From IMG/VR virus record IMGVR_UViG_3300022934_000003: DNA of 64,000 nt; one strand, given 5' to 3'. This document shows positions 3,728 through 38,321 of the stretch, piece by piece. The translations under genes were made by a program, and so were the position numbers. The notes beneath the pieces are model-generated. The model searched no databases, was not told the origin of the DNA, and saw nothing but the letters and a program-made list of their open reading frames with translations. This DNA comes from a virus. The number at the start of each line of letters is the position of its first letter. Within the stretch, counting starts at the first letter, position 1.

Positions 3728-3780
3728 CTTATTTTAATAATATTTTTTTATTATTATAATAAATTATTTTTATAATTTTC

Positions 3781-3857
3781 TGGTGGGCCCACTAGGATTT
3801 GAACCTAGGACCAATGGATTATGAGTCCACTGCTCTAACCAACTGAGCTATAGGCCC
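3781..3857 (-). tRNA. tRNA with CAT anticodon, probably Ile2 (lysidine type) rather than Met
   Basis: GGGCCTA acceptor stem, AGCTCAGTTGGTTAGAGC D arm, CTCATAA loop, GGTTCAAATCC T arm, encoded CCA; resembles ileX-type tRNAs. Confidence 0.9.
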
Positions 3858-5692: not shown

Positions 5693-6058
5693 TTATACCA
5701 TGTTTGTGAGAATGTCAACATAATTTTGCACAAAATTATTAGCATTATTGCTTGAAGGCATATAAAAACTATTATTTACCTGATAAATGCTATTATTTTC
5801 TATCATTATTTGCTTAACTTCTTCTAACATTTTTCCAATAATATAGAGTACTTGATCAAATTCCAAATCTTTTGTACATACCATTAAAGTATATTCCTCT
5901 TCACCATTTTCATAGATTAGGCCATTTTTTCCATCATCGAATGTTTCTGGCCAAGCTTCTACTGTTATTTTATTTGGAAAGATGTCTATTTGTGCACAAA
6001 CATAATTAACAAATTGCTCTGTTAATATGGGATCTATGTTATATGCTTCTACTTTCAT
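5693..6058 (-). CDS. hypothetical protein
   Basis: Translationally coupled to gp52. Confidence 0.6.
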   Translation of the reverse strand: MKVEAYNIDPILTEQFVNYVCAQIDIFPNKITVEAWPETFDDGKNGLIYENGEEEYTLMVCTKDLEFDQVLYIIGKMLEEVKQIMIENNSIYQVNNSFYMPSSNNANNFVQNYVDILTNMV

Positions 6059-7398
6059 TACATTTTATCCAAATCTTTTTTAAATTGATCATTTGGTGTA
6101 GTCGACTTCCAATATGCTAGTCGACTTTGACACTCTTTAATCTCTTGTTGTAGTTCTTTAACCATTTCATCTGTTAGACTTAATATATTTATTCTAAGTA
6201 ATCTATCAATATCTTCAGGAATAGCTTCCGTATTTAATTTAATTTGATTAGCAACATCATCTTTTTTCTTATTTTTAAATTCAATTTTATTATCAAGTAC
6301 TGCTTGAATAAATTGCATTTTAATTTTTAACCATCTTGCTAATTCGCTTTCTTCCATCTTACGAAGATCAATTCTTTTTTGTAAAATACTTAAGCGATAA
6401 TCACAAAAGTCTTTAACGAGCTGGCGTTCGTCAGTATATTCTCTAAGCTTTCCATCAAATCCAATTACAGTTAAATTTTCTGTAAGAGGTTTGCTTAATT
6501 TAAACTTAGAAATAACTTTATCATTATTCCAATTTGCTGATGTATTTTGTTTTAACTTAACTTCAAATTGAAACCCAGTCTTATCGCATTGATCTTCATA
6601 AGATACGATGTCACCTTTATCTTCTAAAGCATCTAGTACTTTAACATATGATTCGCGATCATAACCATATGGAACCTCTGTAATTTGTAGAACCGTTTTA
6701 CTTTTCTTTTCGAAATTACCTAATACGGTATACTTATTTTCAGCTTCATTGTACTTTACAGTTCCGCTGAACTCTGGAAAAGTTATAGGAATTCTACGAG
6801 CAATATTACCAGTATTAAGATACTCGTTACATGCTGTAGAGAGGTCACTAGGGTGACGTGGAAGAATATTTGTAGCAAATCCAGTTGCAATACCTTTAGT
6901 ACCATTTGCTAATACTAATGGAATAACTGGAATATAAAATTTAGGTGGTTCATGTTCAGGATCATCATGTTTAGGTGCTAAGTCGACATCCTGAATATAC
7001 TTATCAAAATTAGAATGAACTTTTGTATAAACATAACGAGGTGCACCAGCTTCTTGTACTAATCTTGTACCAAAAGATCCACGACCTTCAACTAAACAAA
7101 CATTATTGTTCCATGTAGCAGCCATCAATTGACCAGCACCTGCAGCACTTGCTTCACCATGCGCATATCCATAATCAGAGATAATACCTGCAATAGCACT
7201 TACTTTCTTAAAATCTTTTTTAGAATTAAGTAGAGAACTATATAGATAAAATCTTTGTACTGGCTTAAGCCCGTCTATCATATTAGGAATAGCACGTGCT
7301 TCAACAGTATACATAGCAAATGAAAGCCATTCATTGCTTGCTACTTGAGAAATTGGATAATCTGTATTCATAGAGTTATTTGTCTTTAAATCATTCAT
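6058..7398 (-). CDS. gp52: DNA topoisomerase II medium subunit (GyrA/ParC-like)
   Basis: RAIPNMIDGLKPVQR, YAHGEAS, GAPRY catalytic Tyr, PLVLANG.KGIATG. Confidence 0.95.
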   Translation of the reverse strand: MNDLKTNNSMNTDYPISQVASNEWLSFAMYTVEARAIPNMIDGLKPVQRFYLYSSLLNSKKDFKKVSAIAGIISDYGYAHGEASAAGAGQLMAATWNNNVCLVEGRGSFGTRLVQEAGAPRYVYTKVHSNFDKYIQDVDLAPKHDDPEHEPPKFYIPVIPLVLANGTKGIATGFATNILPRHPSDLSTACNEYLNTGNIARRIPITFPEFSGTVKYNEAENKYTVLGNFEKKSKTVLQITEVPYGYDRESYVKVLDALEDKGDIVSYEDQCDKTGFQFEVKLKQNTSANWNNDKVISKFKLSKPLTENLTVIGFDGKLREYTDERQLVKDFCDYRLSILQKRIDLRKMEESELARWLKIKMQFIQAVLDNKIEFKNKKKDDVANQIKLNTEAIPEDIDRLLRINILSLTDEMVKELQQEIKECQSRLAYWKSTTPNDQFKKDLDKM

Positions 7399-7439
7399 AT
7401 AATAATATTATAACATGTTTTAGTTTAATGTCAACAAGT

Positions 7440-9266
7440 TTATGCCATCATATATTCTTTACGTAGCTCAGAATTTTTTCCAAACATCATTTGAAATATA
7501 TTAGCATTATCAACTGTTACAACATCATAAACTGGTTTATTAATTATTTGATCATACTCGTTTTCTTGTAATGATCCTAAACCTTTTATGTAACGATGTT
7601 TCCAACCTGTCTGAGTCGACTTGAATTCATTAGCCTCTTCATATGTATAAAACCATTTAACATCAGATCCTTTAGATGAAATCATAATTGGTGTACGAGT
7701 GATTTTAACTTTTTTCTCAGTTAATAATCTTGGCCAGAATTTATAAAAGAATGCAATAAGTAATGGACTAATATGTCCGATACCATCATGGTCAGCATCT
7801 GTTAATGTAGCAATATATTCATATGTCATATTATCAACAGAGTTCGGATTAGTGATATCGAGGCCGAGAACAGATACTAATTCACTTAATTCTTTATTTT
7901 TAAGAACTTCAGCTGGTTTCATATCCCACGTATTCATAATAACACCACGTAATGGATATGCGCCTACCTTATCAGGATTTCTTACTTTAAGAAGGAATCC
8001 CATTGCAGAATCTCCCTCTACAATTTTAAGTGTTGCATTATCAGTATTTGCTGCAATATGTTTTGCAACTTTAACTTTACGTAATTTCTTCTGTGCAAGA
8101 GTAGCAGCACGTCTATCTGCTGCAATCTTCTTAGCAAGCTGAGCTTCAATAATAGGATCAATAATAGAAGGTGTATTTAAAATCTTTTTAGCATAGAAAG
8201 ATGCTTCTTTAATTCCAGCTTCAATTGAATGTTCCTTAACATTACTCATTGGATTTGTTAGACGTTCTTTTGTTTGAGAATCAAATTTAGGATTTGTAAA
8301 ATTCTTTGCAAACATTACAAATGTTAAACCATTCTTAATAGTCGACTTTGCAACTTCAATTTTATGTCTACGCTTAATCATTGCACCTAATTCATCTAAA
8401 ACAATATTAGTCATGTAGTCGACATATGTACCACCCATGCGAGTGTTAACACCATTAATAAATGAATTAGATCTAAATCCATCATCGGATGCAGAGAAAA
8501 AGAAAGATAAATTATCAGTCTTTTCAATAATTGCTTCTTCGCCAAATAACTCAGAATATTTTTTAAGATTATTTACTTTAATACGACGTTTATTAAATGA
8601 GAATGCAATTTCTGGGAATGCCATTTGTAAACTCATTAAACGATCTTCTACTAAATCAATCGTATCTAAATCAAATAGATTATCAGTTTCATATAAACTA
8701 AAATCTGGAACAAACATAACTTCAGTACCAGATCCTACAGGATATTCTCTTTGTTCTACTTTAATATCCTCACCACCATTTTTACAAGTAACTTGAACCA
8801 ATTTACCATTGGACCACGTTTTACCTACAAATTTAGTCGACAAAAAGTTAGTTGCTGCTGAACCTACACCATTTGTACCAATAGTAACTCGTTCATCATC
8901 AAATGAAGTACCAGCATTTACTCTTGTCCAAGCAGCGACTGGTCTAAGAATTTTATCTTTAGTTGTTTCATCAAAGATTTCATCTTGTGGAATACCACGT
9001 CCATTATCTGTAATTACAACAGAATTATTATCTCTTATAGAAACATTAATTTTATTTCCATATTTAAAATTAGTACGAATTGCTTCATCAATAGAATTAT
9101 CGAGAATTTCATCAATCATTTTAGACAAAGCAGGAACATAAGTATGTTTATCCCACTTACCTAAAACAAATCTTTCAATAACTTCTTGAGAAGAAGAACC
9201 CATATACATACCAATACGTTCTCTGACGTGCTGGCGTGCGGTTAATATTCTAAAATCTTCAGACAC
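7440..9266 (-). CDS. gp39: DNA topoisomerase II large subunit (gp39 and gp60 in one ORF)
   Basis: EILDNSIDE, DNGRGIP, GTNGVG GHKL motifs; VEGDSA, PLRG, TDADHDG TOPRIM; YIKGLG. Confidence 0.95.
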   Translation of the reverse strand: MSEDFRILTARQHVRERIGMYMGSSSQEVIERFVLGKWDKHTYVPALSKMIDEILDNSIDEAIRTNFKYGNKINVSIRDNNSVVITDNGRGIPQDEIFDETTKDKILRPVAAWTRVNAGTSFDDERVTIGTNGVGSAATNFLSTKFVGKTWSNGKLVQVTCKNGGEDIKVEQREYPVGSGTEVMFVPDFSLYETDNLFDLDTIDLVEDRLMSLQMAFPEIAFSFNKRRIKVNNLKKYSELFGEEAIIEKTDNLSFFFSASDDGFRSNSFINGVNTRMGGTYVDYMTNIVLDELGAMIKRRHKIEVAKSTIKNGLTFVMFAKNFTNPKFDSQTKERLTNPMSNVKEHSIEAGIKEASFYAKKILNTPSIIDPIIEAQLAKKIAADRRAATLAQKKLRKVKVAKHIAANTDNATLKIVEGDSAMGFLLKVRNPDKVGAYPLRGVIMNTWDMKPAEVLKNKELSELVSVLGLDITNPNSVDNMTYEYIATLTDADHDGIGHISPLLIAFFYKFWPRLLTEKKVKITRTPIMISSKGSDVKWFYTYEEANEFKSTQTGWKHRYIKGLGSLQENEYDQIINKPVYDVVTVDNANIFQMMFGKNSELRKEYMMA

Positions 9267-9339
9267 TAAATTTTGCTCCGTTTTTAACTTATAATAAATA
9301 ATAACATAACTTTAAAAAAATGTCAACAGGTAAATTTCA

Positions 9340-9828
9340 ATGATTACAAATTATTTATCGCCGGTATCATTTCTTGTAACTATAGATAGAATACCCAATG
9401 TAGAGTTCTTTACTCAAAAGGCTACTATCCCTAGTTTAACTATGACGCCTATATTACAAACTGCTCCTATTCACAATATATATAAAGAACCAGATCGCTT
9501 AGACTACACAGAACTGGATCTATCTTTTATTGTTGATGAAAATATGACCAACTATAAAGAAATATTAAACTGGATGGAAGGTCTTGGTACTCCAGTTAAA
9601 TCTGATCAATACGCAAATTTAGCCAAAACAAAAGAAGGTATTGTATCAGATATATCTATACTTATTCAAAATAGCGCTCGCAATCCAAATATTAAATTTA
9701 CTTTTACAGATTGCTTTCCAACTTCATTAGCACCCGTCATGCTAGATGTAACTTCTCCAGATGTTTTTTATCCAGAATGTAACGTTACATTTAGATATAA
9801 TAACTTCTTTATGGAAACTATTAGTTGA
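9340..9828 (+). CDS. gp3: tail tube terminator / tail completion protein
   Basis: NYLSP..F...RIPNVEFF.Q...P, FIVDENMTNY.EI.NW, FTDCFP; position before uvsY. Confidence 0.8.
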   Translation: MITNYLSPVSFLVTIDRIPNVEFFTQKATIPSLTMTPILQTAPIHNIYKEPDRLDYTELDLSFIVDENMTNYKEILNWMEGLGTPVKSDQYANLAKTKEGIVSDISILIQNSARNPNIKFTFTDCFPTSLAPVMLDVTSPDVFYPECNVTFRYNNFFMETIS

Positions 9829-9891
9829 CATTTCTAATAAACTATGTTATAATATTATATATTGTGAAAAACTGAATGTCAAGGATTTGTA

Positions 9892-10329
9892 ATGAGTACT
9901 GAAGATATTAATAATATTTGGGCTGAAGATTCTCGTATAGATGAATCAAATTTAGCCGGCGAGCTTAAAAAAATTCCAGCTTTGCATAACAAATATTATA
10001 CATTATATTATAAAGAAGCATTAACTGTCAAAAAATTAAGAGCAGATTATAAAGTATTAGAGCTAGAAAAGCGAGAATACTATGATGGATCTATGGCAGA
10101 AGAAGATCTTAAAGAACGTGGGTGGGTCCCATTTCAGAAAAAAGTACTTCGTAATGATGTAGACAAGTACATCCAAGCAGATAAAGATATTATAAGATTG
10201 AGTCTCAAAATCGATCTCCATTCAGCAAGAGCAAACTTTTTAGAAGATATTGTAAAGACTTTGCATTCAAGAAATTTTATTATTAAATCAATGATAGATA
10301 TTATTAAATTCCAACACGGCGAATATTAA
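9892..10329 (+). CDS. uvsY: recombination mediator UvsY
   Basis: W.EDS.ID...L..E..KIP.LH.KY; YIQAD.D; RNF.IK. Confidence 0.85.
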   Translation: MSTEDINNIWAEDSRIDESNLAGELKKIPALHNKYYTLYYKEALTVKKLRADYKVLELEKREYYDGSMAEEDLKERGWVPFQKKVLRNDVDKYIQADKDIIRLSLKIDLHSARANFLEDIVKTLHSRNFIIKSMIDIIKFQHGEY

Positions 10330-11822
10330 TGAGTGAAGTAATAAAAATTGAGCCGCATGATGCTGTACACATGGTTGTACATGCAGATTCTGGTACTAAA
10401 ATGGAATTAGAAAATTATTTCCGTTTTCAACCAAGTGGTTATCAATTTTCTCCAGCATATAAAAATAGAGTATGGGATGGATGGATTAGAATTTTCCAGG
10501 CATTACGTCCAAAATTATATGTTGGTCTATTACCTCATTTACAAAAATTTTGCGAGGAAAGAGGATATGATTTAGATGCTCCAGATCATATGATTTTTGG
10601 AGAAGATGTTCCTGATGATTATGCATATAAATTAGCAAAAGAAATTGATTGTAAATTTGAACCTCGTGATTATCAAAATCAATATGTAATTGATGCATTA
10701 AGAGATCAAAGATCTTTATCATTATCTCCCACATCATCTGGTAAATCATTAATTATCTATTTAATTCAACAACATTATTTTAAAACATATAATCATCGTA
10801 CACTTATTATTGTACCGACAATTGGATTGGTCCATCAAATGGCAGGTGACTTTGTCGACTATGGATGTGATCCGGATTTAATTTATAAGATACAAGGTGG
10901 AGTCGACAAGAATACAGATGCTCCAATTGTTATTTCTACATGGCAATCATTAGTTAAATTACCAAAATCATGGTTTGCTCCATTTAGAGTTGTACTTGGA
11001 GATGAAGCACATCAATTCCAAGCTAAATCTTTACAAAAAATTATGGAGTCTTTACCTAATTGTTATTATCGACATGGCTTTACTGGCACATTAAAATCAG
11101 AAGAAAGTAAAACACATCGTCTTGTATTGGAAGGATGTTTTGGTAAAGTAAGAAAGCACGTGTCGACTAAAGAACTTATGGATAAAGGTACTGTTGCAGA
11201 CTTTAATGTAAAAGCAATTGTACTTTCTCATTCACCTGATGTAAGAAAAAGTTTTTATTCTGCATATAAACAAATTAAAGAATCGAGTAAACGTTATCCT
11301 GCGGAAAGAGAATTTATTGTTAATAATACAAAAAGAAATATTTTTATAAGAAATCTTTTATGGTCCCTTGAAGGACAAAATAATCTTGTATTATTTGATC
11401 TTGTAGAAAAACATGGTAAAATATTAGAACCTCTTTTACAAAAAGAAGATCGTCAATTGCATTTTATATATGGCGGAACAAAAGGAGAGGAAAGAGAAAG
11501 AATTAGACACTTAGTAGAAAATGATCCAATTAAACAGCATGATATTCTTGCTTCTTATGGAGTTTTTTCAACTGGTGTTAATCTAAAGAAATTGGATAAT
11601 GTAATATTCGCTTCTGGTTCTAAATCAGAAATTAAAGTATTACAATCTATTGGTAGAGCATTAAGAAAAGGGAATGACGCTGATAAAGCGACATTGTATG
11701 ATATTGCAGATGATTTATCTCTAAAATCTTTTGAAAATTATACGTTACAACATTTTAGAAAAAGAATGGAAATCTATGGATCAGAACAATTTCCTGTTAA
11801 GATTTTTACAGTTGATGTTTAA
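10329..11822 (+). CDS. uvsW: DNA helicase UvsW (SF2)
   Basis: PRDYQ, SPTSSGKS, DEAH, GFTGT, QSIGRALR. Confidence 0.95.
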   Translation: MSEVIKIEPHDAVHMVVHADSGTKMELENYFRFQPSGYQFSPAYKNRVWDGWIRIFQALRPKLYVGLLPHLQKFCEERGYDLDAPDHMIFGEDVPDDYAYKLAKEIDCKFEPRDYQNQYVIDALRDQRSLSLSPTSSGKSLIIYLIQQHYFKTYNHRTLIIVPTIGLVHQMAGDFVDYGCDPDLIYKIQGGVDKNTDAPIVISTWQSLVKLPKSWFAPFRVVLGDEAHQFQAKSLQKIMESLPNCYYRHGFTGTLKSEESKTHRLVLEGCFGKVRKHVSTKELMDKGTVADFNVKAIVLSHSPDVRKSFYSAYKQIKESSKRYPAEREFIVNNTKRNIFIRNLLWSLEGQNNLVLFDLVEKHGKILEPLLQKEDRQLHFIYGGTKGEERERIRHLVENDPIKQHDILASYGVFSTGVNLKKLDNVIFASGSKSEIKVLQSIGRALRKGNDADKATLYDIADDLSLKSFENYTLQHFRKRMEIYGSEQFPVKIFTVDV

Positions 11823-11854
11823 GAGCCTTTTATTGGTTTCTAAGGCATAAGCCT

Positions 11855-11960
11855 ATTATACATGGCTTTTAAAAGTTTGTCAACCCTTTTTTTAACTTTT
11901 TTTTAAAAATAATTTAATTTAATAAAAACAGTTGACATTTCATTAAAAATATGTTAGAAT
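11855..11960. promoter_or_regulatory. divergent sigma70 promoters in an AT-rich intergenic region
   Basis: Minus: TTGACA-17-TATAAT (11883-11855), antisense to uvsW; plus: TTGACA-17-TAGAAT (11932-11960) before gp55. Confidence 0.8.
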
Positions 11961-11993
11961 TATTTAAAATTATTACAACACGAGTGAGGAACT

Positions 11994-12515
11994 ATGGCTA
12001 AGCGTAACTACGTTAATAATAAAGACCTACTCGCAGCAATGGTAGATTATAAAGCAAGTTGCCAAGAAGCAGAAGAAGCTGGTGACAAAAAACCACGCGT
12101 TCCTGATTATATTGGTGAATGCATTTTACAAATTGCTACGAGATTGGCTACTAAACCAAATTTTTCTGGATATTCATATAAAGAAGATATGATTTCAGAC
12201 GGTATTGAAAACTGTTTACTTTACATAAGCAACTTTAATCCAGATAAATCTAATAATCCATTTGCATACTTTACACAAATTATTTGGTATGCATTCTTAA
12301 GACGTATTGCAAAAGAAAAGAAACAAATGTATATTCGTTTCAAATCTTCTCAAGCATTTCTTGCAGCAGGTCAAACATATGAAGGTGATGAAGATTTAAG
12401 TTTACATTTAAATACTGCAGCAGATTATATGAATACATTTATTGAAGATTTTGAAGATAAACTTAATCGTGATAAACAAAAGAAAAAAGAAAAAGAAGAA
12501 GAAAAGAAAAAATGA
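11994..12515 (+). CDS. gp55: late-transcription sigma factor
   Basis: NYVNNKD, PDYIGEC, PNFSGYSYKEDMISDGIENC, NPFAYFTQI. Confidence 0.95.
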   Translation: MAKRNYVNNKDLLAAMVDYKASCQEAEEAGDKKPRVPDYIGECILQIATRLATKPNFSGYSYKEDMISDGIENCLLYISNFNPDKSNNPFAYFTQIIWYAFLRRIAKEKKQMYIRFKSSQAFLAAGQTYEGDEDLSLHLNTAADYMNTFIEDFEDKLNRDKQKKKEKEEEKKK

Positions 12516-12871
12516 GATTTACAAAAGAACACGAATGGATTAAAAAAGAAGGTGACTTATATTTAGTTGGAGTTACTCAACATGCTATTGAATTATTAGG
12601 TGATTTGGTTTATATTGAATTACCAGCACCAGGTGAAGTGTTTGATAAAGATACAGAATGTGCTGTAGTAGAATCTGTTAAAGCAGCTTCAGATGTTTAT
12701 TGTCCAGTATCAGGCCTGGTGACTGAAATTAATGCATCATTAGAAGATACGCCTGAAGCAGTAAGTGATGATTGGACTACATGGATATTTAAATTAGAAA
12801 ATGTAAACGAAGCAGATTTAGAAGATTTTATGGATGAGGAAGCTTATAATAAGTATATCGAGGGATTATAA
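12512..12871 (+). CDS. gcvH: glycine cleavage system H protein (lipoyl carrier)
   Basis: FTKEHEW, GVTQHA..LLGDLVYIELP, VESVKAASDVYCPVSG with lipoyl Lys, MDEEAY. Confidence 0.92.
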   Translation: MRFTKEHEWIKKEGDLYLVGVTQHAIELLGDLVYIELPAPGEVFDKDTECAVVESVKAASDVYCPVSGLVTEINASLEDTPEAVSDDWTTWIFKLENVNEADLEDFMDEEAYNKYIEGL

Positions 12872-13932
12872 TGAAAATAGCAATGGTTACAGACATGCAC
12901 ATTGGAGTGCGTGGTGATTCTAAAATATTTCAACAACATCAAGAAAGATTTTTTCGTGAAATCTTTTTTCCATATTTAGATGAGCATGATATTAAAATCG
13001 TATTTGATCTTGGTGATACATTTGATAGACGTAAATATATTAACTTTGTAAGTTTACAAAAAGGTAAAGAGTTTTTCTTTGACGAACTTGCTAAACGTAA
13101 TATTGAATTTCATGCTTTAGTTGGTAATCATACAACATATTATACAAATACAAATGAAGTTAACTCAATGAATCTATTGCTTCGTGAGTATGATAACTTT
13201 CATATCTATGAAGATAAATGTGAACATTTGACAATTGGCTCAACTAAGTTTATAATGGTACCTTGGATTAATAATTCAAATTACAAAGAAATGATGGATC
13301 AAATTCGTAATTCAGATGCTAATGTATGTATTGGCCACTTCTCAATTCAAGGATTTGAAATGGATAAAGGACATGTATGCGATCATGGTTTAACTAAAGA
13401 AGTATTTACAAACTTTGAAGCAGTATACTCTGGTCACTTCCATCATCCATCTACATATAATAATATTTCTTACCTTGGTTCTCCATATGAAATGACATGG
13501 GCTGATTATCAAGGTAAACGTGGTTTTAGAGTATTTGATACTGAAACAAGAGAATTAGATTGGATTTTAAATCCAAATCCTATTTTTCATAAGATTGAAT
13601 ATGATGATGCTGATATGACTATTGATGATGTTGCTAATCTAAATACAGATAATATCGAAAATACTTATATTAAAGTTATTGTAAAAAATAGAACTAATCC
13701 ATATATCTATGATCTTTTTATTAATAGGTTAGTAGATTCTGGAGCAGCTGATGTAAAAGCAGTTGAAGACTCTTTAAATTTAGAAGCTGAAGGTATTGAT
13801 GAAATACTAGATGAAACTAAAGACACAAAAGAAATATTACATAACTATATTGATGCAATGGAAACGCGTGTTGATAAAGTTCATGTAAAAAGAATTATTG
13901 ATGAATTATATACTGAGGCACAATCTATATAA
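12871..13932 (+). CDS. gp47: recombination endonuclease subunit (Mre11/SbcD-like)
   Basis: TDMHIG, LGDTFDRR, VGNH, GHFH, YLGSPY. Confidence 0.95.
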   Translation: MKIAMVTDMHIGVRGDSKIFQQHQERFFREIFFPYLDEHDIKIVFDLGDTFDRRKYINFVSLQKGKEFFFDELAKRNIEFHALVGNHTTYYTNTNEVNSMNLLLREYDNFHIYEDKCEHLTIGSTKFIMVPWINNSNYKEMMDQIRNSDANVCIGHFSIQGFEMDKGHVCDHGLTKEVFTNFEAVYSGHFHHPSTYNNISYLGSPYEMTWADYQGKRGFRVFDTETRELDWILNPNPIFHKIEYDDADMTIDDVANLNTDNIENTYIKVIVKNRTNPYIYDLFINRLVDSGAADVKAVEDSLNLEAEGIDEILDETKDTKEILHNYIDAMETRVDKVHVKRIIDELYTEAQSI

Positions 13933-15645
13933 ATGAAAATACAATTTAAAAAGATCCGCTATAAGAATATTCTTTCAGCGGGTAATGCATTCACTGAAAT
14001 TCTTTTCGATAAAAGCAAAACAACTCTGGTAAGTGGCACTAATGGTAGTGGTAAGTCGACTATGCTTGATGCTCTTACATTTGCTTTATATGGAAAAGCT
14101 TTTCGTAAAGTAAAGAAGGACCAATTAGTTAACTCAATTAATAATAAAGAATTAGAAGTTGAAGTTGAATTTGCTATTGGATCATCTTATTATAAAATAC
14201 AACGAGGTATTAAACCAAACTATTTTAAGATTTATTTGAATGGTAATTTAATAGATCAAGATGCTGCTGTTAAAGATTATCAATCTTATTTAGAACAAAA
14301 TATATTACGTCTAAACTATAAATCTTTTACTCAGATAGTTGTATTAGGTAGCGCAACTTATGTTCCATTTATGGATTTAGCAGCAGGCCAACGAAGAGAT
14401 ATTATTGAAGACTTACTTGACATTGAAGTATTTAGTGTTATGAATACGTTATTAAAAGATAAAATAAGTTCAAATAAAGAAAGCATTACAGAAAACAGTT
14501 ATCAAAAAGATATGATCGAAACAAGAATTGATTCAGCAAAAGAACATAATGAATCAATACGAAAGATTAAAGAAAAAGAAGTCGACAAGATTAAAGAAAA
14601 GATGAAAGTACATCTCGAAAATATTGAAAATGAAAAAGCTTCTATTGATGTACTTGATAAAGAAATTGCAGAACTTAATGAATCTATTAAGGATAAACCA
14701 AATGTTAAATCTAAATTAGATAAAGCAAAACAACTTAAACGCGATTTAACATCATCATTACAAACTCTTATAAATGAGCATGCTTTTTATCATAATAATG
14801 ATAACTGCCCAACTTGTGAGCAAGCTATTGCTCATGATTTTAAGCAAGAAGCAATGACTAAAAAATCAAATAAGATGGATGAAATTAAAAGTGGTACTGT
14901 AGATCTTGATGCTAAAATACAAGAATATGAAACTCGTATGAATGAAATTTCAGATGTCGAAGATAAGATTTCTGATAAAGCACTTACAAGTGCAGATCAT
15001 AGAGCTCATATTAAAATGGCAAAGAATGCTCTTGTGTCTTATAAAAATGAATTAACAAGTGCTGAGGAAGAAGTCGAAGCAGTTGACACATCTAAATTAG
15101 AGGAATATAATAGACAATTAGAAAAGATTGAAAATCAGCAAACAGTTTTATTTGAAGAAAAAGAAGTGATTGGAGTTATTAGAGCAATGCTGCAAGATGG
15201 AGGTATTAAAGCTAAGATTATTAAACAGTATGTACCTGTTATGAATAAACTTATCAACAAATATCTAACAGCGTTTGATCTCTTTGTCGACTTCCAACTA
15301 GATGAAAACTTTAATGAGATTATTAAATCTCGTTTCCGTGATAAATTCTCTTATGCTTCATTCTCAGAAGGTGAAAAGCTACGTATTACATTATCAATTA
15401 TGTTAGCGTGGCGAGCTGTAGCAAAATTAAGAAATTCAGTAGCAACTAATCTATTATTGCTAGATGAAACATTAGATGGTGCTCTTGATGGAACTGGTAT
15501 CGAGATGTTAATTGATACTTTACATAACTTAAATGCTGATGATAATATCTTTGTTATCTCTCATCGTGGACATCAGTTTGGTGACAAATTTATGTCTCAT
15601 ATTAAATTTGAGAAAGTAAAAAACTTCAGCCAAATTGCAGCTTAG
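13933..15645 (+). CDS. gp46: recombination endonuclease ATPase subunit (Rad50/SbcC-like)
   Basis: GTNGSGKS Walker A, CPTC zinc hook, FSEGEK signature, LLLDE. Confidence 0.95.
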   Translation: MKIQFKKIRYKNILSAGNAFTEILFDKSKTTLVSGTNGSGKSTMLDALTFALYGKAFRKVKKDQLVNSINNKELEVEVEFAIGSSYYKIQRGIKPNYFKIYLNGNLIDQDAAVKDYQSYLEQNILRLNYKSFTQIVVLGSATYVPFMDLAAGQRRDIIEDLLDIEVFSVMNTLLKDKISSNKESITENSYQKDMIETRIDSAKEHNESIRKIKEKEVDKIKEKMKVHLENIENEKASIDVLDKEIAELNESIKDKPNVKSKLDKAKQLKRDLTSSLQTLINEHAFYHNNDNCPTCEQAIAHDFKQEAMTKKSNKMDEIKSGTVDLDAKIQEYETRMNEISDVEDKISDKALTSADHRAHIKMAKNALVSYKNELTSAEEEVEAVDTSKLEEYNRQLEKIENQQTVLFEEKEVIGVIRAMLQDGGIKAKIIKQYVPVMNKLINKYLTAFDLFVDFQLDENFNEIIKSRFRDKFSYASFSEGEKLRITLSIMLAWRAVAKLRNSVATNLLLLDETLDGALDGTGIEMLIDTLHNLNADDNIFVISHRGHQFGDKFMSHIKFEKVKNFSQIAA

Positions 15646-15653
15646 GAGAAAAT

Positions 15654-15869
15654 ATGCAACACAAAATTAGTGACTTCTGTAAAAAAATTAATCTAATGCA
15701 CGAGAAAGCATCATACCTTCGTTATGAAAAATACAGTGTGCCAAAGGAAAGACGTGATGAAGGAATGATTAGAGCTCTTATTGATGACATTCAAGCTCTT
15801 GCTATTGAAGTTGCGCATGACCGCGGAATCCACCCAAAAATGTCAGAAAAGGATGTAAATAATAGTTGA
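15654..15869 (+). CDS. hypothetical protein
   Basis: AGGAG SD, 71 aa. Confidence 0.6.
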   Translation: MQHKISDFCKKINLMHEKASYLRYEKYSVPKERRDEGMIRALIDDIQALAIEVAHDRGIHPKMSEKDVNNS

Positions 15870-15929
15870 CATTAATGCGCTTTTTTGATATAATGTTAAC
15901 TATAATGTACAAAACACATAAGGAAATTC

Positions 15930-18509
15930 ATGCCTGATTTTTACACCAACGTAGATCGAATTGGTAACTTTATTCTATGGCGAGGATATCAAGCCGGACG
16001 AAAGTTCGAACGTAAAATTAAATACGAACCTACTATCTTTGTAGGTACTAATAATAAAGAATCGATGTGGAAATCTCTTATTGATGATAGTCCACTTCAG
16101 GCTACTAAAAAAGGTACGATGAAAGATACTCGTATCTATATCGAAGATCATAAAGATGTTCATGGATTTAAAATTGCTGGTAATAGTAATTATGTTGCGC
16201 AATTTATTCAAGAGCATTATCCTGATAATATTGAATTTGATCCATCATTAATTAATATCGTTTCGTTTGATATAGAGGTTGATATATCTGATGGTTATGC
16301 TAATATTAACCAAGCAGATAAAGAAATTACATCTATTGCTTACAAGTCGACTAAACACCTAAGGTATCATTTGCTTGGTCGTAAAGACTATGATAAGACT
16401 CAAACTATTACTGATATTAATCCAGATAATATCGAATTTAAAAAGTTTGATACTGAACATCAATTACTTCAAGAGTTTAAACGTATTTGGATGGAAGACT
16501 ATCCTGATATTGTAACTGGTTGGAACGTTGAATATTTTGATATTCAATATATTATAACTCGTATGATTCGTTTATTTGGCGAAGACTGGGTTAAAGATCT
16601 ATCTCCTTGGCGTAATATTCGTCAGCAATCTCGTGAAGTATTTGGTAAAAAACAATCAACTTGGTCTATATCTGGTATATCGATTATTGATTATATGGAT
16701 GCTTTTAAGAAGTTTGGTTACAAATATGGTCCACAAGAATCTTATAAACTAGATCATATTGCTTACGTCGTGCTTGGTGAAAAGAAATTAGATTACTCTG
16801 AATATGGTTCTTTGACTGCTTTGTACGAACAAAATCCACAACTTTATTTGGATTATAACCTTAAAGATACATGGCTTGTTGAAAAGCTTGAAGAGGAATC
16901 AGGTCTACTATCTCTTGTAATGACTGTTGCTTATGGTGGAGGTGTAAACTATTCTGATGCATTTGGTACCGTGAGTATTTGGGAAACAACTCTTTATCGT
17001 CGACTGATGAAAAAAGGTATTGTGCCTCCATTAAAAGGTGGTCCTGGTGAACGCGTTGCTGAACTCGTTGGTGGTTATGTTAAAGATCCAAAGGTTGGAA
17101 TGCATCCTTGGGTTGTCTCATTCGATCTAAATTCTCTATATCCACACCTGATGTTACAATATAACTTGTCACCAGAAACATATGTAGACAACGCACGAGA
17201 ATATATTAACCAAGATATGGTGCTCAATGGACAAGAAGTTGCAGATCCTAATAATCCTGGTAGTACAATGCGTGTACCATATCAAAACAGATCTAGGTAT
17301 GCAACATGTGCTAATGGTGCATGCTTTAGAAAAGATAAACTTGGTATCATTCCTGAAATCATTGATGAATATTATGCTACTCGATCTGGAATTAAAAAGC
17401 GTATGTTACAAGTTGAACAAGAACTTGAAACTGCGAAGGGTACTGATAAATTAGCTCTTAAACGAGAAGCTAACCAATTACATAATCAGCAAATGGCGAT
17501 TAAGATTGCTATGAACTCTTTGTATGGCGCAACAGCAAATATTTACTTCCTATATTATATTAACGATATGGCTGAAGCAATTACAACATCTGGCCAATTG
17601 TCAATTCGTTACGCTCAAAAATCTGTAAACGAATATCTAAATAAGTTATTGAAAACAGATAGTGTTGATTATATTATCTACATCGATACAGATTCTATCT
17701 ATGTTAATATGGGACCTGTTATTCAAGCTTCGTTTGGTACAATGGATATCGATCGTGCTAAAGGTGAAGAGTTCCTTGATAAAATTTGTGAAATGAAAAT
17801 TGAACCTATTATTGATGCTGGTTATAAAGAACTTGCTGAAAAGATGGGAGCATATCGACAAGCAATGAGTATGAAGCGAGAAAAGATTACTGATAAAGCA
17901 GTATTCATTGCAAAGAAACGTTATATTTTAAATGCACTTAACTCAGAAGGTGTACATTATGAACAACCTAAGATTTCTGTTACAGGTTTGGAATCAGTAC
18001 GATCTTCTACTCCGGAAGTTTGTCGTGATAAACTGAAAGCAGCATTTAAAGTAATTATGAATGAAGGTGAAGAAGCAATGCAAGAATTTATTGCTAATTT
18101 TAAAGATGAGTTCTTTAAACTACCACCTGAAGCTATTGGCCGTAACTCCGGTACAGATAATATAGATAAGTATAGGAATAGAGAAACATTGTACAAAAAA
18201 GGTTGTCCAATGCACGTAAGAGGTTGTATTCTTTATAATTATCATTTGAAAGAAAAGCAGTTAGATAAAAAATTCGAATCTGTTATTTCAGGTGATAAAG
18301 TAAAGTTTGTTTATCTTAAAACACCTAATCCTATTCGTGAAAATATTATATCGTTTCCCGGAGTACTTCCTAAAGAACTTGGATTGCATGACTATATAGA
18401 TTATGAAAAGCAATTCGAAAAGGTTTTTCTAAGTCCTCTTGAATCTATCCTCGAAGCGATCGGTTGGTCTGCAGAGAAGGTAAATACTCTTGAAGACTTT
18501 TTTGTTTAA
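15930..18509 (+). CDS. gp43: family B DNA polymerase
   Basis: FDIE exonuclease motif, [25 protein letters not shown]-terminal LEDFF clamp-binding peptide. Confidence 0.97.
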
Positions 18510-18520
18510 GGAGATATACG

Positions 18521-18703
18521 TTGAATGACGAAACAAAACGATGGAGATTAGATGTGCTAATATCAAAACATGATCACCAGCATAACATAGTAGAACAACT
18601 TATTGCTGAAGGTTGCTCAGATGATATTGTAAGCAAAGCTAAGAAAGAAAAATTATTATTAAAGGATGAAATAAGAAAATTAGAATTAGAACTAGGAGAA
18701 TAA
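18521..18703 (+). CDS. DUF465/YdcH-like coiled-coil protein
   Basis: KKEKLLLKDEI motif; AAGGAG SD, TTG start. Confidence 0.6.
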   Translation: MNDETKRWRLDVLISKHDHQHNIVEQLIAEGCSDDIVSKAKKEKLLLKDEIRKLELELGE

Positions 18704-18704
18704 C

Positions 18705-19220
18705 ATGAGTAAAGATTGGGCCCAAGATATTCATGAAATGCAAAACAAGTTCCAACTACCTAATTGGGTAAAGGATAATCCAGATAAACTTAAAGAGTTT
18801 TTAGAGTTTAGGATTCGTTTTGTTCGTGAAGAATTGGAAGAAACAGAAAAAGCGTTTGCAAATAAAATTGACGCAGAAGAAATTGTAGATGGTTTAATTG
18901 ATATATGTGTAGTTGCTATCGGCACACTTGATGCATTTAAAGTAAATTCTCATCAGGCATGGGATCAAGTTATGGAAGCTAATATGTCAAAAGAAGTTGG
19001 TGTAAAACCAGAAAGACCAAATCCACTTGGTTTACCAGATTTAATGAAACCAGAAGGTTGGCAAGCTCCATCTCATGCTGGTAATCACGGTTTATTAGCA
19101 AATCTATATCGTCTTGATAAGATTGGACAAGGACTAAAACAGCAAGTAGAATCAGGAACTTTGTCTGCAGATGATCTAGATTATATTGAAAAAATTGCAA
19201 AAAGTTTGAAAAAAGGCTAA
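18705..19220 (+). CDS. all-alpha NTP pyrophosphohydrolase (MazG/PRA-PH-like)
   Basis: EELEE...EEIVDGLIDI, ANMSK, KPEGWQAP. Confidence 0.8.
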   Translation: MSKDWAQDIHEMQNKFQLPNWVKDNPDKLKEFLEFRIRFVREELEETEKAFANKIDAEEIVDGLIDICVVAIGTLDAFKVNSHQAWDQVMEANMSKEVGVKPERPNPLGLPDLMKPEGWQAPSHAGNHGLLANLYRLDKIGQGLKQQVESGTLSADDLDYIEKIAKSLKKG

Positions 19221-19227
19221 AAAAGGG

Positions 19228-19264
19228 TTGACATCTTCTTAGAACTAGTGTATAATATAACTAT
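19228..19264 (+). promoter_or_regulatory. repeated 37-bp early promoter, copy 3
   Basis: Identical to copy 1. Confidence 0.9.
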
Positions 19265-19289
19265 ATTAAATAATAAAGCAAGGAGATTT

Positions 19290-19565
19290 ATGATTACAAA
19301 AGAAAACTTTAGAATTGAATCTAACTATCTAACATTTGTACCTTCAACTGCGAAGACTCATGCTGACTTTACTCATGTTTGTTCTAGAGATCGTAGATTC
19401 CACAAATGGACTTGTGCTAAAGTCCGTAATCTTATCATCAAAGAATTAAATGATAATAACATTACAGAAGATAAAGTTAATCGTGATCTTATTGAGTCTT
19501 TCTTAAATGACGGTGTTGTTAAAGATTACATTACTGCTAACGTACCATCTTTTATGAGAAAATAA
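19290..19565 (+). CDS. hypothetical early protein
   Basis: Start MITKENF at 19290 after AAGGAG. Confidence 0.65.
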   Translation: MITKENFRIESNYLTFVPSTAKTHADFTHVCSRDRRFHKWTCAKVRNLIIKELNDNNITEDKVNRDLIESFLNDGVVKDYITANVPSFMRK

Positions 19566-19580
19566 TTTAGGAGTTATATT

Positions 19581-19829
19581 ATGTTAAAATATGAAAATGT
19601 TGCTGAAGTTGGTGATACTATCAAAGCTTTAGATTTTGAACCTTGGGTTGGCCGTGAAGATGTTTATCTAATTGGTAAAGTTACAGATAAAGGTATGAAC
19701 GAGCTTGGTTATGCCGCTTATACAGTAAAAGTTTTAGAATCTCCAGGATTCGAATCTCGTGTTGGAACAACTATGTATGTTCCATATCAATCAAACTTTG
19801 ATTTTGAAGGTCGTGTATGCCGGGTTTAG
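19581..19829 (+). CDS. hypothetical protein (small beta-rich)
   Basis: AGGAG SD. Confidence 0.65.
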   Translation: MLKYENVAEVGDTIKALDFEPWVGREDVYLIGKVTDKGMNELGYAAYTVKVLESPGFESRVGTTMYVPYQSNFDFEGRVCRV

Positions 19830-20065
19830 TTTATTGTGATTATATTGCAGATCGTGTTAAGACTGCATTAAATATTGATTCTGAAATAGAAGGATCATTA
19901 TTACAAGAAGTAGGTAATATCGAATGGGATCTGCATCCAAAAGACGGATACTTATTATCTACAGATAAATGGCTTTATGCCACAGATATTAACGGTAATA
20001 AATATCGAATATCTGTAGAAAAAATAGAAGAAGAATATGAACGAATTGCTGATAGAGCTATTTGA
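19817..20065 (+). CDS. hypothetical protein
   Basis: Overlapping co-oriented ORF. Confidence 0.55.
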   Translation: MPGLVYCDYIADRVKTALNIDSEIEGSLLQEVGNIEWDLHPKDGYLLSTDKWLYATDINGNKYRISVEKIEEEYERIADRAI

Positions 20066-20264
20066 AAAATTAGAGCAACCATATAATAGTTTAGTTGTAT
20101 TAAAACTAGCTGATATGATAGACACTATGATAGAAGATGGTGTTTTAGATGAATCTGATGCACAAATAGCTGAAAATATCGAATTTATTTGCAAATTACC
20201 AAAAAAATAATTGAAAATAATTCTAAGTTATTGATTTTTAATGAAAACTTTTTTCACAAAAAGG

Positions 20265-20301
20265 TTGACATCTTCTTGAAACTAGTGTATAATATAACTA
20301 T
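20265..20301 (+). promoter_or_regulatory. repeated 37-bp early promoter, copy 4
   Basis: TTGACA-TCTTCTTGAAACTAGTG-TATAAT-ATAACTAT. Confidence 0.9.
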
Positions 20302-20324
20302 AAAATAAAAAATTAGGAGATATT

Positions 20325-20603
20325 ATGCGATACTACGAACCCAACTACAATCCTACTGATGCTGAGAAATACGCTGCCCATCTTGGTCGTATTCTTATGG
20401 ATTATTCAATGAACATGCCTATGAAAGGCTTATCAAATGACGAGGTCGCTCGTTCTAATCGTATGTCTGCTTTTGGTGATAGACTTACTCGTATCGGTTC
20501 AGAGTTTGGACCAAAAACCTTTAATGATGTAATCGAATCTGCTGGTGTCACTATGACAGAAGCAAAAGAATTTCTTAAACTAGCTAAAAAGGAGGACAAA
20601 TAA
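20325..20603 (+). CDS. hypothetical early protein
   Basis: AGGAG SD downstream of the promoter. Confidence 0.7.
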   Translation: MRYYEPNYNPTDAEKYAAHLGRILMDYSMNMPMKGLSNDEVARSNRMSAFGDRLTRIGSEFGPKTFNDVIESAGVTMTEAKEFLKLAKKEDK

Positions 20604-20750
20604 AATGTCAGCAATTAGCGATATTATTATTGATATTCAGGAAATGCTTGCGGAAGGTTTTCCTTCTCTAGCGATTGCTCAAGCTCTGGAAATTCCAGTA
20701 GAATGGGTTGAAGAAGAAAAAGATAAGATGAGACGTGAAGGAGATTTATA

Positions 20751-21095
20751 ATGAAATACACATTTGATGAAAATATTTTTTCTGATCTATATAAAGATGC
20801 TTATGGTGTTCGTCCTCGTGGACATGCATTCTATACTGCTTCAAATGAAGAGAAGCAAAAAATATGGGATGATACTTTACAAGCTCAGATAGATAATGAA
20901 AAATTCGAAAGAGCAGTTGAAAAAGAATGTATTAATAAGTTTGAAAAAACTGTAGATCATTTAATTAAAATTGGAGCTAATAAACGTTCTACTGCTATTC
21001 GTTGGATGATGGATGCAAGTGATGCTGCCGGTGATTGGGATTACTTCTCTTATCAAAATAACTTACCTTACGATTATCTTAAGGAGGCTTCATGA
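20751..21095 (+). CDS. hypothetical phage protein
   Basis: SDLYKDAYGVRPRG motif typical of small early phage proteins; AAGGAG SD. Confidence 0.7.
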   Translation: MKYTFDENIFSDLYKDAYGVRPRGHAFYTASNEEKQKIWDDTLQAQIDNEKFERAVEKECINKFEKTVDHLIKIGANKRSTAIRWMMDASDAAGDWDYFSYQNNLPYDYLKEAS

Positions 21096-26815: not shown

Positions 26816-28015
26816 ATGAGTGAGTTTACACATGCAAGTATAGTACCTTTAATTGGTGGTGAAACAATAGGATCTGCAAATGCTTTTGGATCTCCTCCAT
26901 TACATTTTATGTCATATGAAGCGTTTGCTAATAACGATCAGCATATTAGAAATTATTATAAAGATACGCCATATTACGTTTTAGATAAAGGTGATAAAAT
27001 ACCAGAGCAAAGAGCTGATGTAGTTTCATCGGTATGTCCTTGTGCTGGTTTATCAATGATGTCTCACGGTTATGGCGATGATAATCAAAATAATAAATGG
27101 ATGGTAGAAACAGCAACTACTATTCTTGGTGATTATAGACCAAAAGTATTCTGGGGAGAAAATGCTCCAGGATTTGCTGGTAAGATTGGAAAAAATATTC
27201 GTGAACAATTAAGAGGTATTGGTAAAGAGAATGGATACACAATGAGTGTATATCGTACTCGTTCTTTATTGCATGGTGTACCTCAGGTAAGAGAACGTTC
27301 TTTTTATTTCTTTTGGCAAGGTAATCAAGTTCCTATTTTTGATTATTATAAAAGAGATTATACACCAATTGAAACGCTTATTCGTAATGCAAAAGGTACT
27401 CAAAATAATCCTATTAATAAAAACACACCATCTGAAAATCCATATTACAAATATATTCTTGAAGAGATTGAAGGTGGTAAAACACATGCTCAACATTCCA
27501 ATTCAGTTCCTCCAACATCAGCAAGAGGTGTAGATGCTTTTTCTTATATTGAAAGAGCAGGTAAAGATTATAGCCAAGTTGGTAAATGGATGGGTGAAAA
27601 TGGATTTGAAAAAGAAGTAGAAAAATGTGAATACAAATATGATAAACTAAAAGCCGGTAAAAGTATTATGAGACGTGGAGTAATTATTCCTAAAGATCGT
27701 ATTGGTGCTTTTGTTGGTCATTATCCTACAATGCTTACACATCCAGATGAGGATAGATTTATTACATATCGAGAAGCTATGTCTATTATGGGATTGCCAG
27801 AAGATTTTGAATTAGTAGATGCTAGTAAAAAGAATGCTAATCATATTTGTCAAAACGTTCCTGTAAAAACTGCTCAAGATATGGCGCATGAAGTATTACA
27901 AACTTTAAAAGGTAAAAGAAAAATGGTTGACACGGAGTACGTTTTGCAGTATAATACTACTAATAAGCTTGAATTTGATGAGAGCTTAAGTACCCTAGAG
28001 GATTTTTTAGTATGA
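26816..28015 (+). CDS. DNA cytosine-5 methyltransferase-like protein with an atypical motif I
   Basis: CPCAG (motif IV), ENAPG (VI), VPQVRER (VIII), RFITYREA..MGLP.DF (IX), QNVP (X). Confidence 0.8.
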   Translation: MSEFTHASIVPLIGGETIGSANAFGSPPLHFMSYEAFANNDQHIRNYYKDTPYYVLDKGDKIPEQRADVVSSVCPCAGLSMMSHGYGDDNQNNKWMVETATTILGDYRPKVFWGENAPGFAGKIGKNIREQLRGIGKENGYTMSVYRTRSLLHGVPQVRERSFYFFWQGNQVPIFDYYKRDYTPIETLIRNAKGTQNNPINKNTPSENPYYKYILEEIEGGKTHAQHSNSVPPTSARGVDAFSYIERAGKDYSQVGKWMGENGFEKEVEKCEYKYDKLKAGKSIMRRGVIIPKDRIGAFVGHYPTMLTHPDEDRFITYREAMSIMGLPEDFELVDASKKNANHICQNVPVKTAQDMAHEVLQTLKGKRKMVDTEYVLQYNTTNKLEFDESLSTLEDFLV

Positions 28016-29599: not shown

Positions 29600-30265
29600 A
29601 TGAAATTTTCTGAACAAACTCTTACTATTTTAAAGAGCTTTGCATCGATTAATAAATCGATTCTAATGAAACCTGGTAATACACTTAAAACTGTAACACC
29701 GGAAAAAACTTTGATCGCAACTGCAGATATTCCGGATACAATCCCATCTGAAGCTTGCGTATATGATTTATCAAGATTTTTATCAATTCTTGGTCTTTAT
29801 TCTGACCCAGATGTGGAATTTCATGATAAATACTTTATGATTAAAGATGGTAAGCGTAAAACAAGATATGCTTTCGCTGACATCTCTATGATTCATGCAG
29901 CGCCAGAGAAGACAATTCAATTGCCTTCTAATGACGTTGAGGTTGATGTATCATGGGACGACTTACAGTCTGTTATTAAGGCTGCTGGTGTTCTACAATT
30001 TTCTGAGATTGCTTTCGTTGGTGAAGCAGGTAAAGTTTACCTAAAAGCCGTTGATAGTACATCTGAAAATTCTGATGATTATGGAATTGAAATTGGTGAT
30101 ACGTCTGATGAATTTAAGATTATTATTAAAAGTGATAATCTTAAGCTTTTACCTCAGGATTACAAAGTTACTCTTTGCGCGAAGGGTATCTCTGAGTTTA
30201 AAGGCAAGGGTGCTACATATTTTGTAGCAATTGATACTAAGTCGACTTATAAGGAAGGAAATTAA
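29600..30265 (+). CDS. gp45: DNA polymerase sliding clamp
   Basis: MKFSEQTL.ILK.FASIN.SI, YDL..FL, NLKLLP.DY.V. Confidence 0.9.
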   Translation: MKFSEQTLTILKSFASINKSILMKPGNTLKTVTPEKTLIATADIPDTIPSEACVYDLSRFLSILGLYSDPDVEFHDKYFMIKDGKRKTRYAFADISMIHAAPEKTIQLPSNDVEVDVSWDDLQSVIKAAGVLQFSEIAFVGEAGKVYLKAVDSTSENSDDYGIEIGDTSDEFKIIIKSDNLKLLPQDYKVTLCAKGISEFKGKGATYFVAIDTKSTYKEGN

Positions 30266-38292: not shown

Positions 38293-38321
38293 TATAAATA
38301 GAAATAATAATTTTATTTATA
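38293..38321. promoter_or_regulatory. pair of oppositely oriented T4-type late promoters
   Basis: TATAAATA at 38293-38300 (+) and 38314-38321 (-) between divergent late operons; further copies at 33162, 52575, 62173, 62817. Confidence 0.75.

Follow-up and report, generated by a model that had tools for sequence, protein, structure and literature searches.

What is to be made of a short palindrome that piles up in one block of a phage genome and stays at chance level elsewhere? The question is raised by the word GTCGAC in a 64,000-nt stretch of viral DNA (IMG/VR record IMGVR_UViG_3300022934_000003; the whole stretch is called the window here). The DNA belongs to an uncultured marine T4-like phage whose closest cultured UvsW matches are ~44% identical and for which no DNA-level match was found among GenBank phages. 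A preliminary description had counted 15 copies by hand within about 11 kb, with two more elsewhere, and every one of these coordinates proved exact, the pattern being stronger than first described: a full scan of the window finds 17 copies, 15 in the interval 6101-17004 and the others at 30241 and 62102. Density is thus anything but uniform, since 15 of the 17 window sites fall in one block, where they are spread over 10.9 kb at spacings of 19-2893 bp. One hundred dinucleotide-preserving shuffles of the whole window gave an expectation of 2.46 copies and a highest count of 7, against the 17 observed, while a second-order Markov model of 6001-17100 predicts 0.37 (Poisson p = 2e-19). The excess withstands a stricter null as well: 1000 synonymous-codon shuffles within the region's own genes yielded a mean of 0.42 copies (sd 0.67, maximum 4) against 15 observed, and a shuffle drawing on the window-wide codon pool gave a mean of 0.23 for the region. 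When all hexamers of the window were ranked by local clustering, the top places went to GTCGAC and to AGTCGA, a word that overlaps it. Short palindromes in phages are usually discussed as words that are avoided because of restriction. Here the block has the opposite sign, and outside it two copies are observed where ~0.9 are expected.

The enrichment is limited to the full hexamer. Once the 15 sites are set aside, GTC plus GAC and TCGA occur in the region at the same frequency as in the rest of the window, the GC content, CpG and codon usage of the region equal the background, and the one-step neighbours GTCGAA/TTCGAC, ATCGAC/GTCGAT and GTCTAC are at background there too. The neighbour pair GTTGAC/GTCAAC is found 7 times in the cluster against 4.0 scaled from the rest of the window, so that no depletion is seen. 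As the preliminary description had stated, the sites lie in conserved genes in different frames; all three frames are used, and the word is read as V-D, x-S-T or x-R-x. Of the positions at which the protein sequence permits the word, the region's genes fill 15 of 37 and the remainder of the window 2 of 153; for gp52, gp39, uvsW and gp46 together the count is 13 of 20. The use of all frames argues against an effect on translation and, together with the background level of the sub-words, rules out selection for codon pairs or rare codons. That the block was recombined from a GTCGAC-rich donor, or reflects plain codon or composition bias, is close to refuted. The region is indeed a conserved core flanked by variable DNA, a point in favour of import. 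However, GC content, CpG and all other words remain at background, the codon-preserving null gives 0.42, identity to relatives moves in step for gp39 and uvsW, and lineages differ in their sites at both synonymous and non-synonymous positions. Nor was a genome-wide GTCGAC excess, of the kind a donor would carry, found in any relative's long contig or in 160 kb of this genome.

The extent of the recognized unit can be read from the flanks. The context WGTCGACW, which the preliminary description had given for nearly all sites, is present at 14 of the 15 in the cluster, but it does not generalize well: across the clade the flanks are ~79-80% A/T, just slightly above background, with a weak preference that is symmetric (A before, T after). 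No symmetric extension past ±1 of the hexamer was seen at the cluster sites, which rules out a longer dyad motif there. Because the flanks are near background and no such extension exists, the unit is the 6-bp palindrome. A contiguous 6-bp palindrome with uninformative flanks points, therefore, to recognition of the Type II restriction-modification kind and not to a typical operator; a palindrome is also what a dimer that reads duplex DNA would be expected to recognize.

These properties bear on whether the word is a signal in RNA, GUCGAC in mRNAs being bound by an RNA-binding protein or ribonuclease or pairing with other copies. Every cluster site lies in transcribed coding sequence, with none in the 73-bp and 171-bp spacers, T follows 13 of the 15 sites on the coding strand, and threonine is encoded by ACT at 10.4 of 15 frame-2 positions against 43% ACT usage, all of which would suit such a signal. 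An RNA word leaves the perfect palindrome unexplained, however (palindromes are 64 of the 4096 hexamers), the slight bias of the flanks has the symmetry of a DNA dyad, and the sites are distributed over three or more transcription units, which lie on both strands and contain many consensus promoters. We regard a signal at the RNA level as very unlikely.

Does the word follow the replication genes or a place in the genome? The exact proteins of the window are found on many metagenomic contigs of up to 216.7 kb, and contigs such as ENA ERZ27313168 k141_1527521 indicate that the phage is abundant in some samples. A near-identical contig of 196.6 kb was walked; the resulting tiles cover 160 kb (−87.6 to +72.8 kb in window coordinates), reaching from 87.6 kb before the window start to 8.8 kb beyond its end (a small register offset at overlaps between tiles and window leaves the counts unaffected, all 17 window sites being recovered). 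These 160 kb hold 19 copies of GTCGAC, 15 of them in the cluster and just two outside the window, and a local-clustering scan over the same span again places GTCGAC/AGTCGA at the top, excepting words of a repeat-rich coding stretch ~70 kb upstream. No copy occurs in gp33, gp59, gp32, uvsX, gp41, RNase H or nrdAB of the same genome. The absence from gp59, gp32, uvsX, gp41, RNase H and nrdAB rules out a 'replication-gene regulon', and the signal therefore tracks location and not gene function. Among nine contigs that are 99.8-99.9% identical to the window, and too similar for constraint to be measured, the seven spanning the cluster keep 15 of 15 sites and the two that start at ~7.2 kb keep all 12 of the 12 they cover.

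Constraint can be addressed in more distant relatives. We mapped 80 IMG/VR and 80 metagenome loci, with UvsW or gp39 75-83% identical, codon by codon onto the window. In these ~160 loci there are 57-59 distinct homologous GTCGAC positions, distributed over frames 0, 1 and 2 as 31/13/15. Many related loci carry a cluster in the same block while others have no site at all: L111/L112 has 14 sites in 21 kb, 11 of them within 7.9 kb, L023 and L032 have 10 each, and a 62-kb contig, G001, has six of its eight sites by the topoisomerase genes, within 6 kb; such topoisomerase-adjacent sites number 10 of 12 in G002 and 5 of 5 in G005, whereas G004, also a 62-kb contig, has none in the block. Site density per covered kilobase is 0.77, 0.26 and 1.07 over gp52/gp39 (6-9 kb), 0.17-0.34 from the gp19-like gene to uvsW (9-12 kb), at most 0.075 past 12 kb and 0.034 in unaligned DNA. 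In dereplicated loci, each scored on its own codon usage, the topoisomerase genes hold 83 sites for an expectation of 19.1; the corresponding figures are 27 and 15.7 for the gp19-like/uvsY/uvsW block and 15 and 16.3 for gp55 to gp43. The clade-wide focus of the array is thus the pair of topoisomerase II genes gp52/gp39 by the strand switch, and the extension into gp46 and gp43 is specific to the window's lineage. The preliminary description had centred the cluster on the uvsW-gp55 spacer; that midpoint holds for the window's lineage but not for the relatives, which peak at 6-9 kb in gp52/gp39.

In a tree of gp39, the positions 7509, 7833, 8341, 8418 and 8682 recur in several deep clades that are separated from one another by lineages lacking any site. 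Silent positions are expected to be saturated when proteins are 75-82% identical, and recurrence therefore implies constraint-based retention or repeated regain. Private sites are also present in each site-rich lineage. T4 itself has nine copies of GTCGAC, evenly spread, and the cluster is therefore not a general T4 trait. Several other palindromes at the same locus in relatives (AGATCT in L010, TCGCGA, CTCGAG, CCGCGG) were considered and set aside as flagged at about the level expected from multiple testing; when they were mapped to the same block and counted per kilobase over 40 loci, GTCGAC was the sole strong outlier, ACATGT marginally passing the same filter.

We favour the view, with a probability of about 0.6, that GTCGAC forms an array of positively selected, cis-acting recognition sites that are embedded in coding DNA and read on duplex DNA. 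The excess is independent of frame, sites are kept or regained in deep relatives and they are confined to one block in at least 160 kb, all of which argues for selected sites and not for a composition effect or a donor block; the coding-embedded recognition sites of the preliminary description are borne out to this extent. The array would act in cis on a single block that straddles the strand switch and comprises, besides the topoisomerase II genes, the recombination and replication genes next to them. Its duplex word would be read by a two-fold-symmetric protein with 6-bp specificity like that of a Type II restriction system, the benefit would rise with the number of sites in the block, and local recruitment, marking or roadblocking may in this way control early replication or expression by a probable oriF-like origin.

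The individual sites show what their acquisition has involved. The cluster falls in gp52, gp39/60, uvsW, gp46 and the first 357 codons of gp43. The gp52-like topoisomerase II subunit (GyrA-type; 6058-7398, minus strand; PF00521, E-value 5e-74) carries sites at 6101-6106 (K-S-T, residue 431) and 6120-6125 (S-R-L), both shared with the L032 lineage only, and at 6982-6987 (V-D), where relatives have mainly GTCAAC. In the gp39/60-like large subunit (GyrB-type; 7440-9266, minus strand; PF00204, PF02518, TOPRIM_C), the site at 7615-7620 (K-S-T) is also present in L004, L009 and L014, that at 8341-8346 (K-S-T, residues 307-309) in 40 of 133 aligned loci across deep clades, and that at 8418-8423 (V-D) in 28 of 133; the site at 8836-8841 (L-S-T) is private to the window's lineage, relatives having other residues. 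A search for gp39 residues associated with the presence of sites returned as its top column the serine of the 8341 K-S-T site itself and was discarded. The uvsW helicase gene (10329-11822, plus strand; PF21241, PF04851) has V-D sites at 10854-10859 (12 of 130 loci) and 10902-10907 (9 of 129) and a V-S-T site at 11162-11167 (7 of 128). In the gene for the Rad50-like gp46 (13933-15645, plus strand; PF13476, PF02463), a private site at 14055-14060 encodes the G-K-S-T of the Walker A motif; of two V-D sites, the one at 14581-14586 is present in 5 of 75 loci and the other, at 15286-15291, is mainly GTTGAC in relatives. The gp43 DNA polymerase gene (15930-18509, plus strand; PF00136, PF03104), in which the cluster stops at residue 357, has private sites at 16346-16351 (K-S-T) and 16999-17004 (R-R-L). 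Relatives have K-S-S at the former (ATCTTC/GTCTTC), so that the gain at 16346 requires two transversions and a replacement of serine by threonine. Several sites involve amino-acid replacements; compared with relatives, those at 16346, 8836, 6101 and 6120 in the window's lineage represent transversions together with residue changes.

Such changes weigh on the most serious non-adaptive rival, a conversion drive in which mismatch correction of the very-short-patch type, partnered with a C5-methyltransferase, turns GTTGAC/GTCAAC heteroduplexes into GTCGAC. Acting mostly where heteroduplexes often form, such as a recombination hotspot tied to an origin, it would let the word accumulate without function, a process that has also been suggested for the cyanobacterial palindrome HIP1 (PMC4390886). 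An orphan C5-methyltransferase-like gene is present, as such a drive would need, and among the near-neighbours that relatives have at homologous positions GTTGAC/GTCAAC is the most frequent (320 cells of the comparison against 271 sites); it is also over-represented in several relatives. Viable site-free lineages would suit a functionless word, and HIP1 offers a precedent that ties iterated palindromes to orphan methyltransferases (PMC4390886). Yet the expected footprints are missing: GTTGAC/GTCAAC is undepleted in the cluster (the 7 against 4.0 given above), empty V-D positions are mainly GTTGAT or GTAGAT, two steps from the word, and several gains needed transversions and residue replacements that are impossible by T:G-to-C:G repair. 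No Vsr-family match was found among the window genes scanned, so that the window shows neither the depleted T-containing neighbour nor the Vsr-type gene of a very-short-patch system, and the locality of the word would demand an extra, hypothetical hotspot. We consider the drive improbable.

Which protein might read selected sites? Three kinds of candidate were weighed. The first, another phage or host protein, is a possibility that we hold only tentatively. Somewhat more doubtful is the phage's orphan C5-cytosine-methyltransferase-like enzyme, predicted from a gene at 26816-28015 (plus strand; PF00145, E-value 7e-21; motifs PC, ENA and QVRER). Its homologues are 77-78% identical to the window query in the site-rich relatives G001 and G002 and 54-69% identical in three site-poor genomes, a comparison that includes just six genomes holding both loci and is confounded by phylogeny. 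Less probable again is the type II topoisomerase that the phage itself encodes: across the clade the array centres on its genes, and its two-fold cleavage core with a 4-bp stagger would match the geometry of G/TCGA/C. We also consider, with considerable reserve, that the array might be an address label for a single locus, its sites serving for docking or as cleavage cores for the phage topoisomerase II or for a clamp-tethered C5-methyltransferase-like enzyme; such a label would control the firing of an oriF-like origin or feed back on the expression of the topoisomerase and replication genes. Many relatives have, inserted between gp39 and gp52, a small open reading frame (ORF) of family phrog_1811 (67-79 aa, motif GIGEHPD; L003:6746-6979 and L039:6760-6969, both on the minus strand, and 33 other loci). 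In the gene content of the 160 loci, this 69-aa ORF occurs in 18 of 27 site-rich against 3 of 49 site-free loci; it is absent from the site-rich 64-kb window and hence is ruled out as a required reader.

Several observations weigh against an array of selected sites. The cost-free spacers hold none of the 15 sites, although they make up only ~2% of the region. Site-free lineages, including G004, are evidently viable, and any function must therefore be dispensable or replaceable. No known sequence-specific binder is encoded in or near the cluster, the methyltransferase candidate gives no reason for the locality, and we know of no strict hexamer specificity among type IIA topoisomerases, whose preferences are loose. 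With present data, moreover, selection and a sequence-specific conversion drive are formally inseparable.

A word shaped like a Type II restriction site could also be cut. A restriction-like nuclease or nickase, of phage or host, might cleave GTCGAC inefficiently in modified DNA, and a dense array would then ensure at least one break per genome, seeding recombination-dependent replication or starting packaging. The genome does encode small PD-(D/E)XK nucleases: a TnsA-like gene of 150 aa at 37821-38273 (minus strand), directly behind the late promoter TATAAATA at 38314 and with >1000 relatives in marine metagenomes, and, ~80 kb upstream of the window, a second TnsA-like gene (L260:13938-14312) and a PDDEXK_1 gene (L260:15493-16164). 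The block itself holds gp46/gp47, uvsY and uvsW, whose T4 counterparts process breaks (PMC3016281). Against cleavage, the site-free G004 has the TnsA-like gene too (75% identity), conversion is expected to lose cut alleles and not to gain them, and the points near 3.8 kb and 7.2 kb where contigs repeatedly break off resemble strain-variable spots and not termini. Programmed cleavage is in our judgement distinctly unlikely.

The setting of the favoured array, one of selected recognition sites, may be that of an origin. The two topoisomerase genes are transcribed leftward and separated from the rightward genes by a 73-bp strand-switch spacer (9267-9339), which carries a leftward sigma-70-like gp39 promoter, TTGACA-17-TATTAT (9326-9298). 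The cumulative GC skew turns at this switch, ~9.3 kb, next to uvsY (9892-10329, plus strand; PF11056), a gene that has no site here and one (9925) in relatives. Between the spacer and uvsY lies a tail-tube-like (gp19-like) gene of 162 aa (9340-9828, plus strand; phrog_45), in which relatives have sites at 9382, 9532, 9597 and 9600. In T4, oriF lies at uvsY, and oriE, oriF and oriG are found at points of transcriptional divergence (PMC3016281). By analogy, the strand switch and skew change adjoining uvsY suggest a putative oriF-like origin near the cluster; the GTCGAC block resembles oriF in its place by uvsY at such a divergence, and oriE, with its iterons, in being a cluster of a repeated word. 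It differs in that no motif is common to the T4 origins and that the iterons of oriE are direct repeats of 12 nt confined to a short stretch (PMC3016281). The window has 17 perfect promoters of the form TTGACA-N16-18-TATAAT where 0.2 would be expected, and every one lies in the early region (2424-33156); nine of them fall between 7.4 and 15.9 kb and several share the spacer TCTTCTTAGAACTAGTG. Three leftward promoters (9854-9882, 10002-10031 and 11855-11883) are antisense to the tail-tube-like gene, uvsY and uvsW, and could serve antisense control or give rise to origin-priming transcripts.

Some further features of the block and its edges were observed. A gene for a glycine-cleavage H-protein (12512-12871), between gp55 and gp47, is found in this lineage only and in 0 of 160 related loci. 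Independent metagenome contigs of the same phage (99.9% identical) repeatedly end at about 3739-3842, 7163-7177 and 18573-19841, a sign that insertions varying between strains may border the conserved block from topoisomerase to polymerase. ATTCGA/TCGAAT shows a local excess too, a weaker one, which begins where the GTCGAC cluster stops (15956-21000; 13 of 28 copies within 5 kb) and includes ATTCGAAT palindromes at 18272 and 19748.

The two outlying copies of GTCGAC have a different appearance. That at 30241 is part of a 12-bp palindrome, TAAGTCGACTTA (30238-30249), at the 3' end and stop region of gp45, which is identical in four diverged lineages; there, in ACTAAGTCGACTTAT, the 15 surrounding bases are identical in all four, G004 among them, while nearby silent positions differ. 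The other, at 62102, sits in a 16-bp palindrome, TAATAGTCGACTATTA (62097-62112), at the end of the ORF 61126-62166 and ahead of a late promoter (62173). Each lying within a longer perfect palindrome, these two may belong to another type of element than the bare hexamers of the cluster.

Elsewhere in the genome, some 67-80 kb before the window begins (L259/L260), there is extreme clustering of the words ACCTTG, CCTTGA and ACAAGG, with 88 of 161 copies of ACCTTG within 6 kb in and around a gene of 877 aa and an FG-GAP gene; this is probably repeat-rich coding sequence. A SegE-like GIY-YIG homing-endonuclease gene lies ~68 kb upstream (L259:10358-10783); SegE of T4 targets the uvsW region. The ORF that runs off the window end (window 62859 and beyond; L251:10675 onward) encodes a protein of 3996 residues.

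How does the array compare with known systems? Clusters of methylation sites mark origins and pac sites, as with GATC in E. coli oriC, P1 oriR and P1 pac, where they are packed into 100-250 bp of DNA that is non-coding, and where both the methyltransferase and the reader are known. GTCGAC resembles these in being a restriction-type palindrome concentrated at one cis-acting locus, theirs being read through its modification state, but its sites are spread over kilobases of coding DNA and lack the dense non-coding packing. Words bound in many copies by one protein, often within genes, to mark a domain or block transcription offer a second likeness; parS and matS are, however, long dyads and stoperators are asymmetric and oriented, with words of 13-16 bp, whereas GTCGAC specifies 6 bp and no ParB-like or repressor gene was seen in the scanned genes. 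The partition role that the preliminary description had suggested by analogy with parS is accordingly not supported: there is no 14-16 bp dyad with an adjacent ParB-type gene, and the Pfam hits of the scanned window genes include no ParB family, small ORFs not all having been scanned singly. A likeness in form is also seen with HIP1 (GCGATCGC), the highly iterated palindrome of cyanobacteria (PMC4390886, PMC5861425): a strict short palindrome far above codon-aware expectation, mostly genic, in any frame and variable between lineages, for which orphan DNA methyltransferases are the suspected partners and no function is agreed. GTCGAC likewise exceeds its codon null, is genic and uses all frames. 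HIP1 is spread genome-wide at up to about one per gene, whereas GTCGAC is confined to 5-11 kb of a ~215-kb genome and is at chance level elsewhere. No relevant account of a local cluster of GTCGAC or of palindromes in T4-like phages came to light in literature searches, and a local palindrome array of this type appears to be undescribed.

Across a widespread uncultured marine clade of T4-like phages, then, a restriction-type word has been actively built up at one locus, at the price of using rare codons and even of changing amino acids. If a reader exists, the array would be a compact and testable handle on how the early replication block is marked or regulated, and could bear on the choice of origin, on topoisomerase action on modified DNA and on site-specific modification in hypermodified DNA. 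Were the sites read as an address label, they would constitute a type of cis element not described for T4-like phages; were they the product of a conversion drive, a virus would here offer a rare parallel, confined to one locus, to biased gene conversion. Whichever holds, comparative controls are at hand in the 57-59 mapped positions and in the lineages that naturally lack sites.

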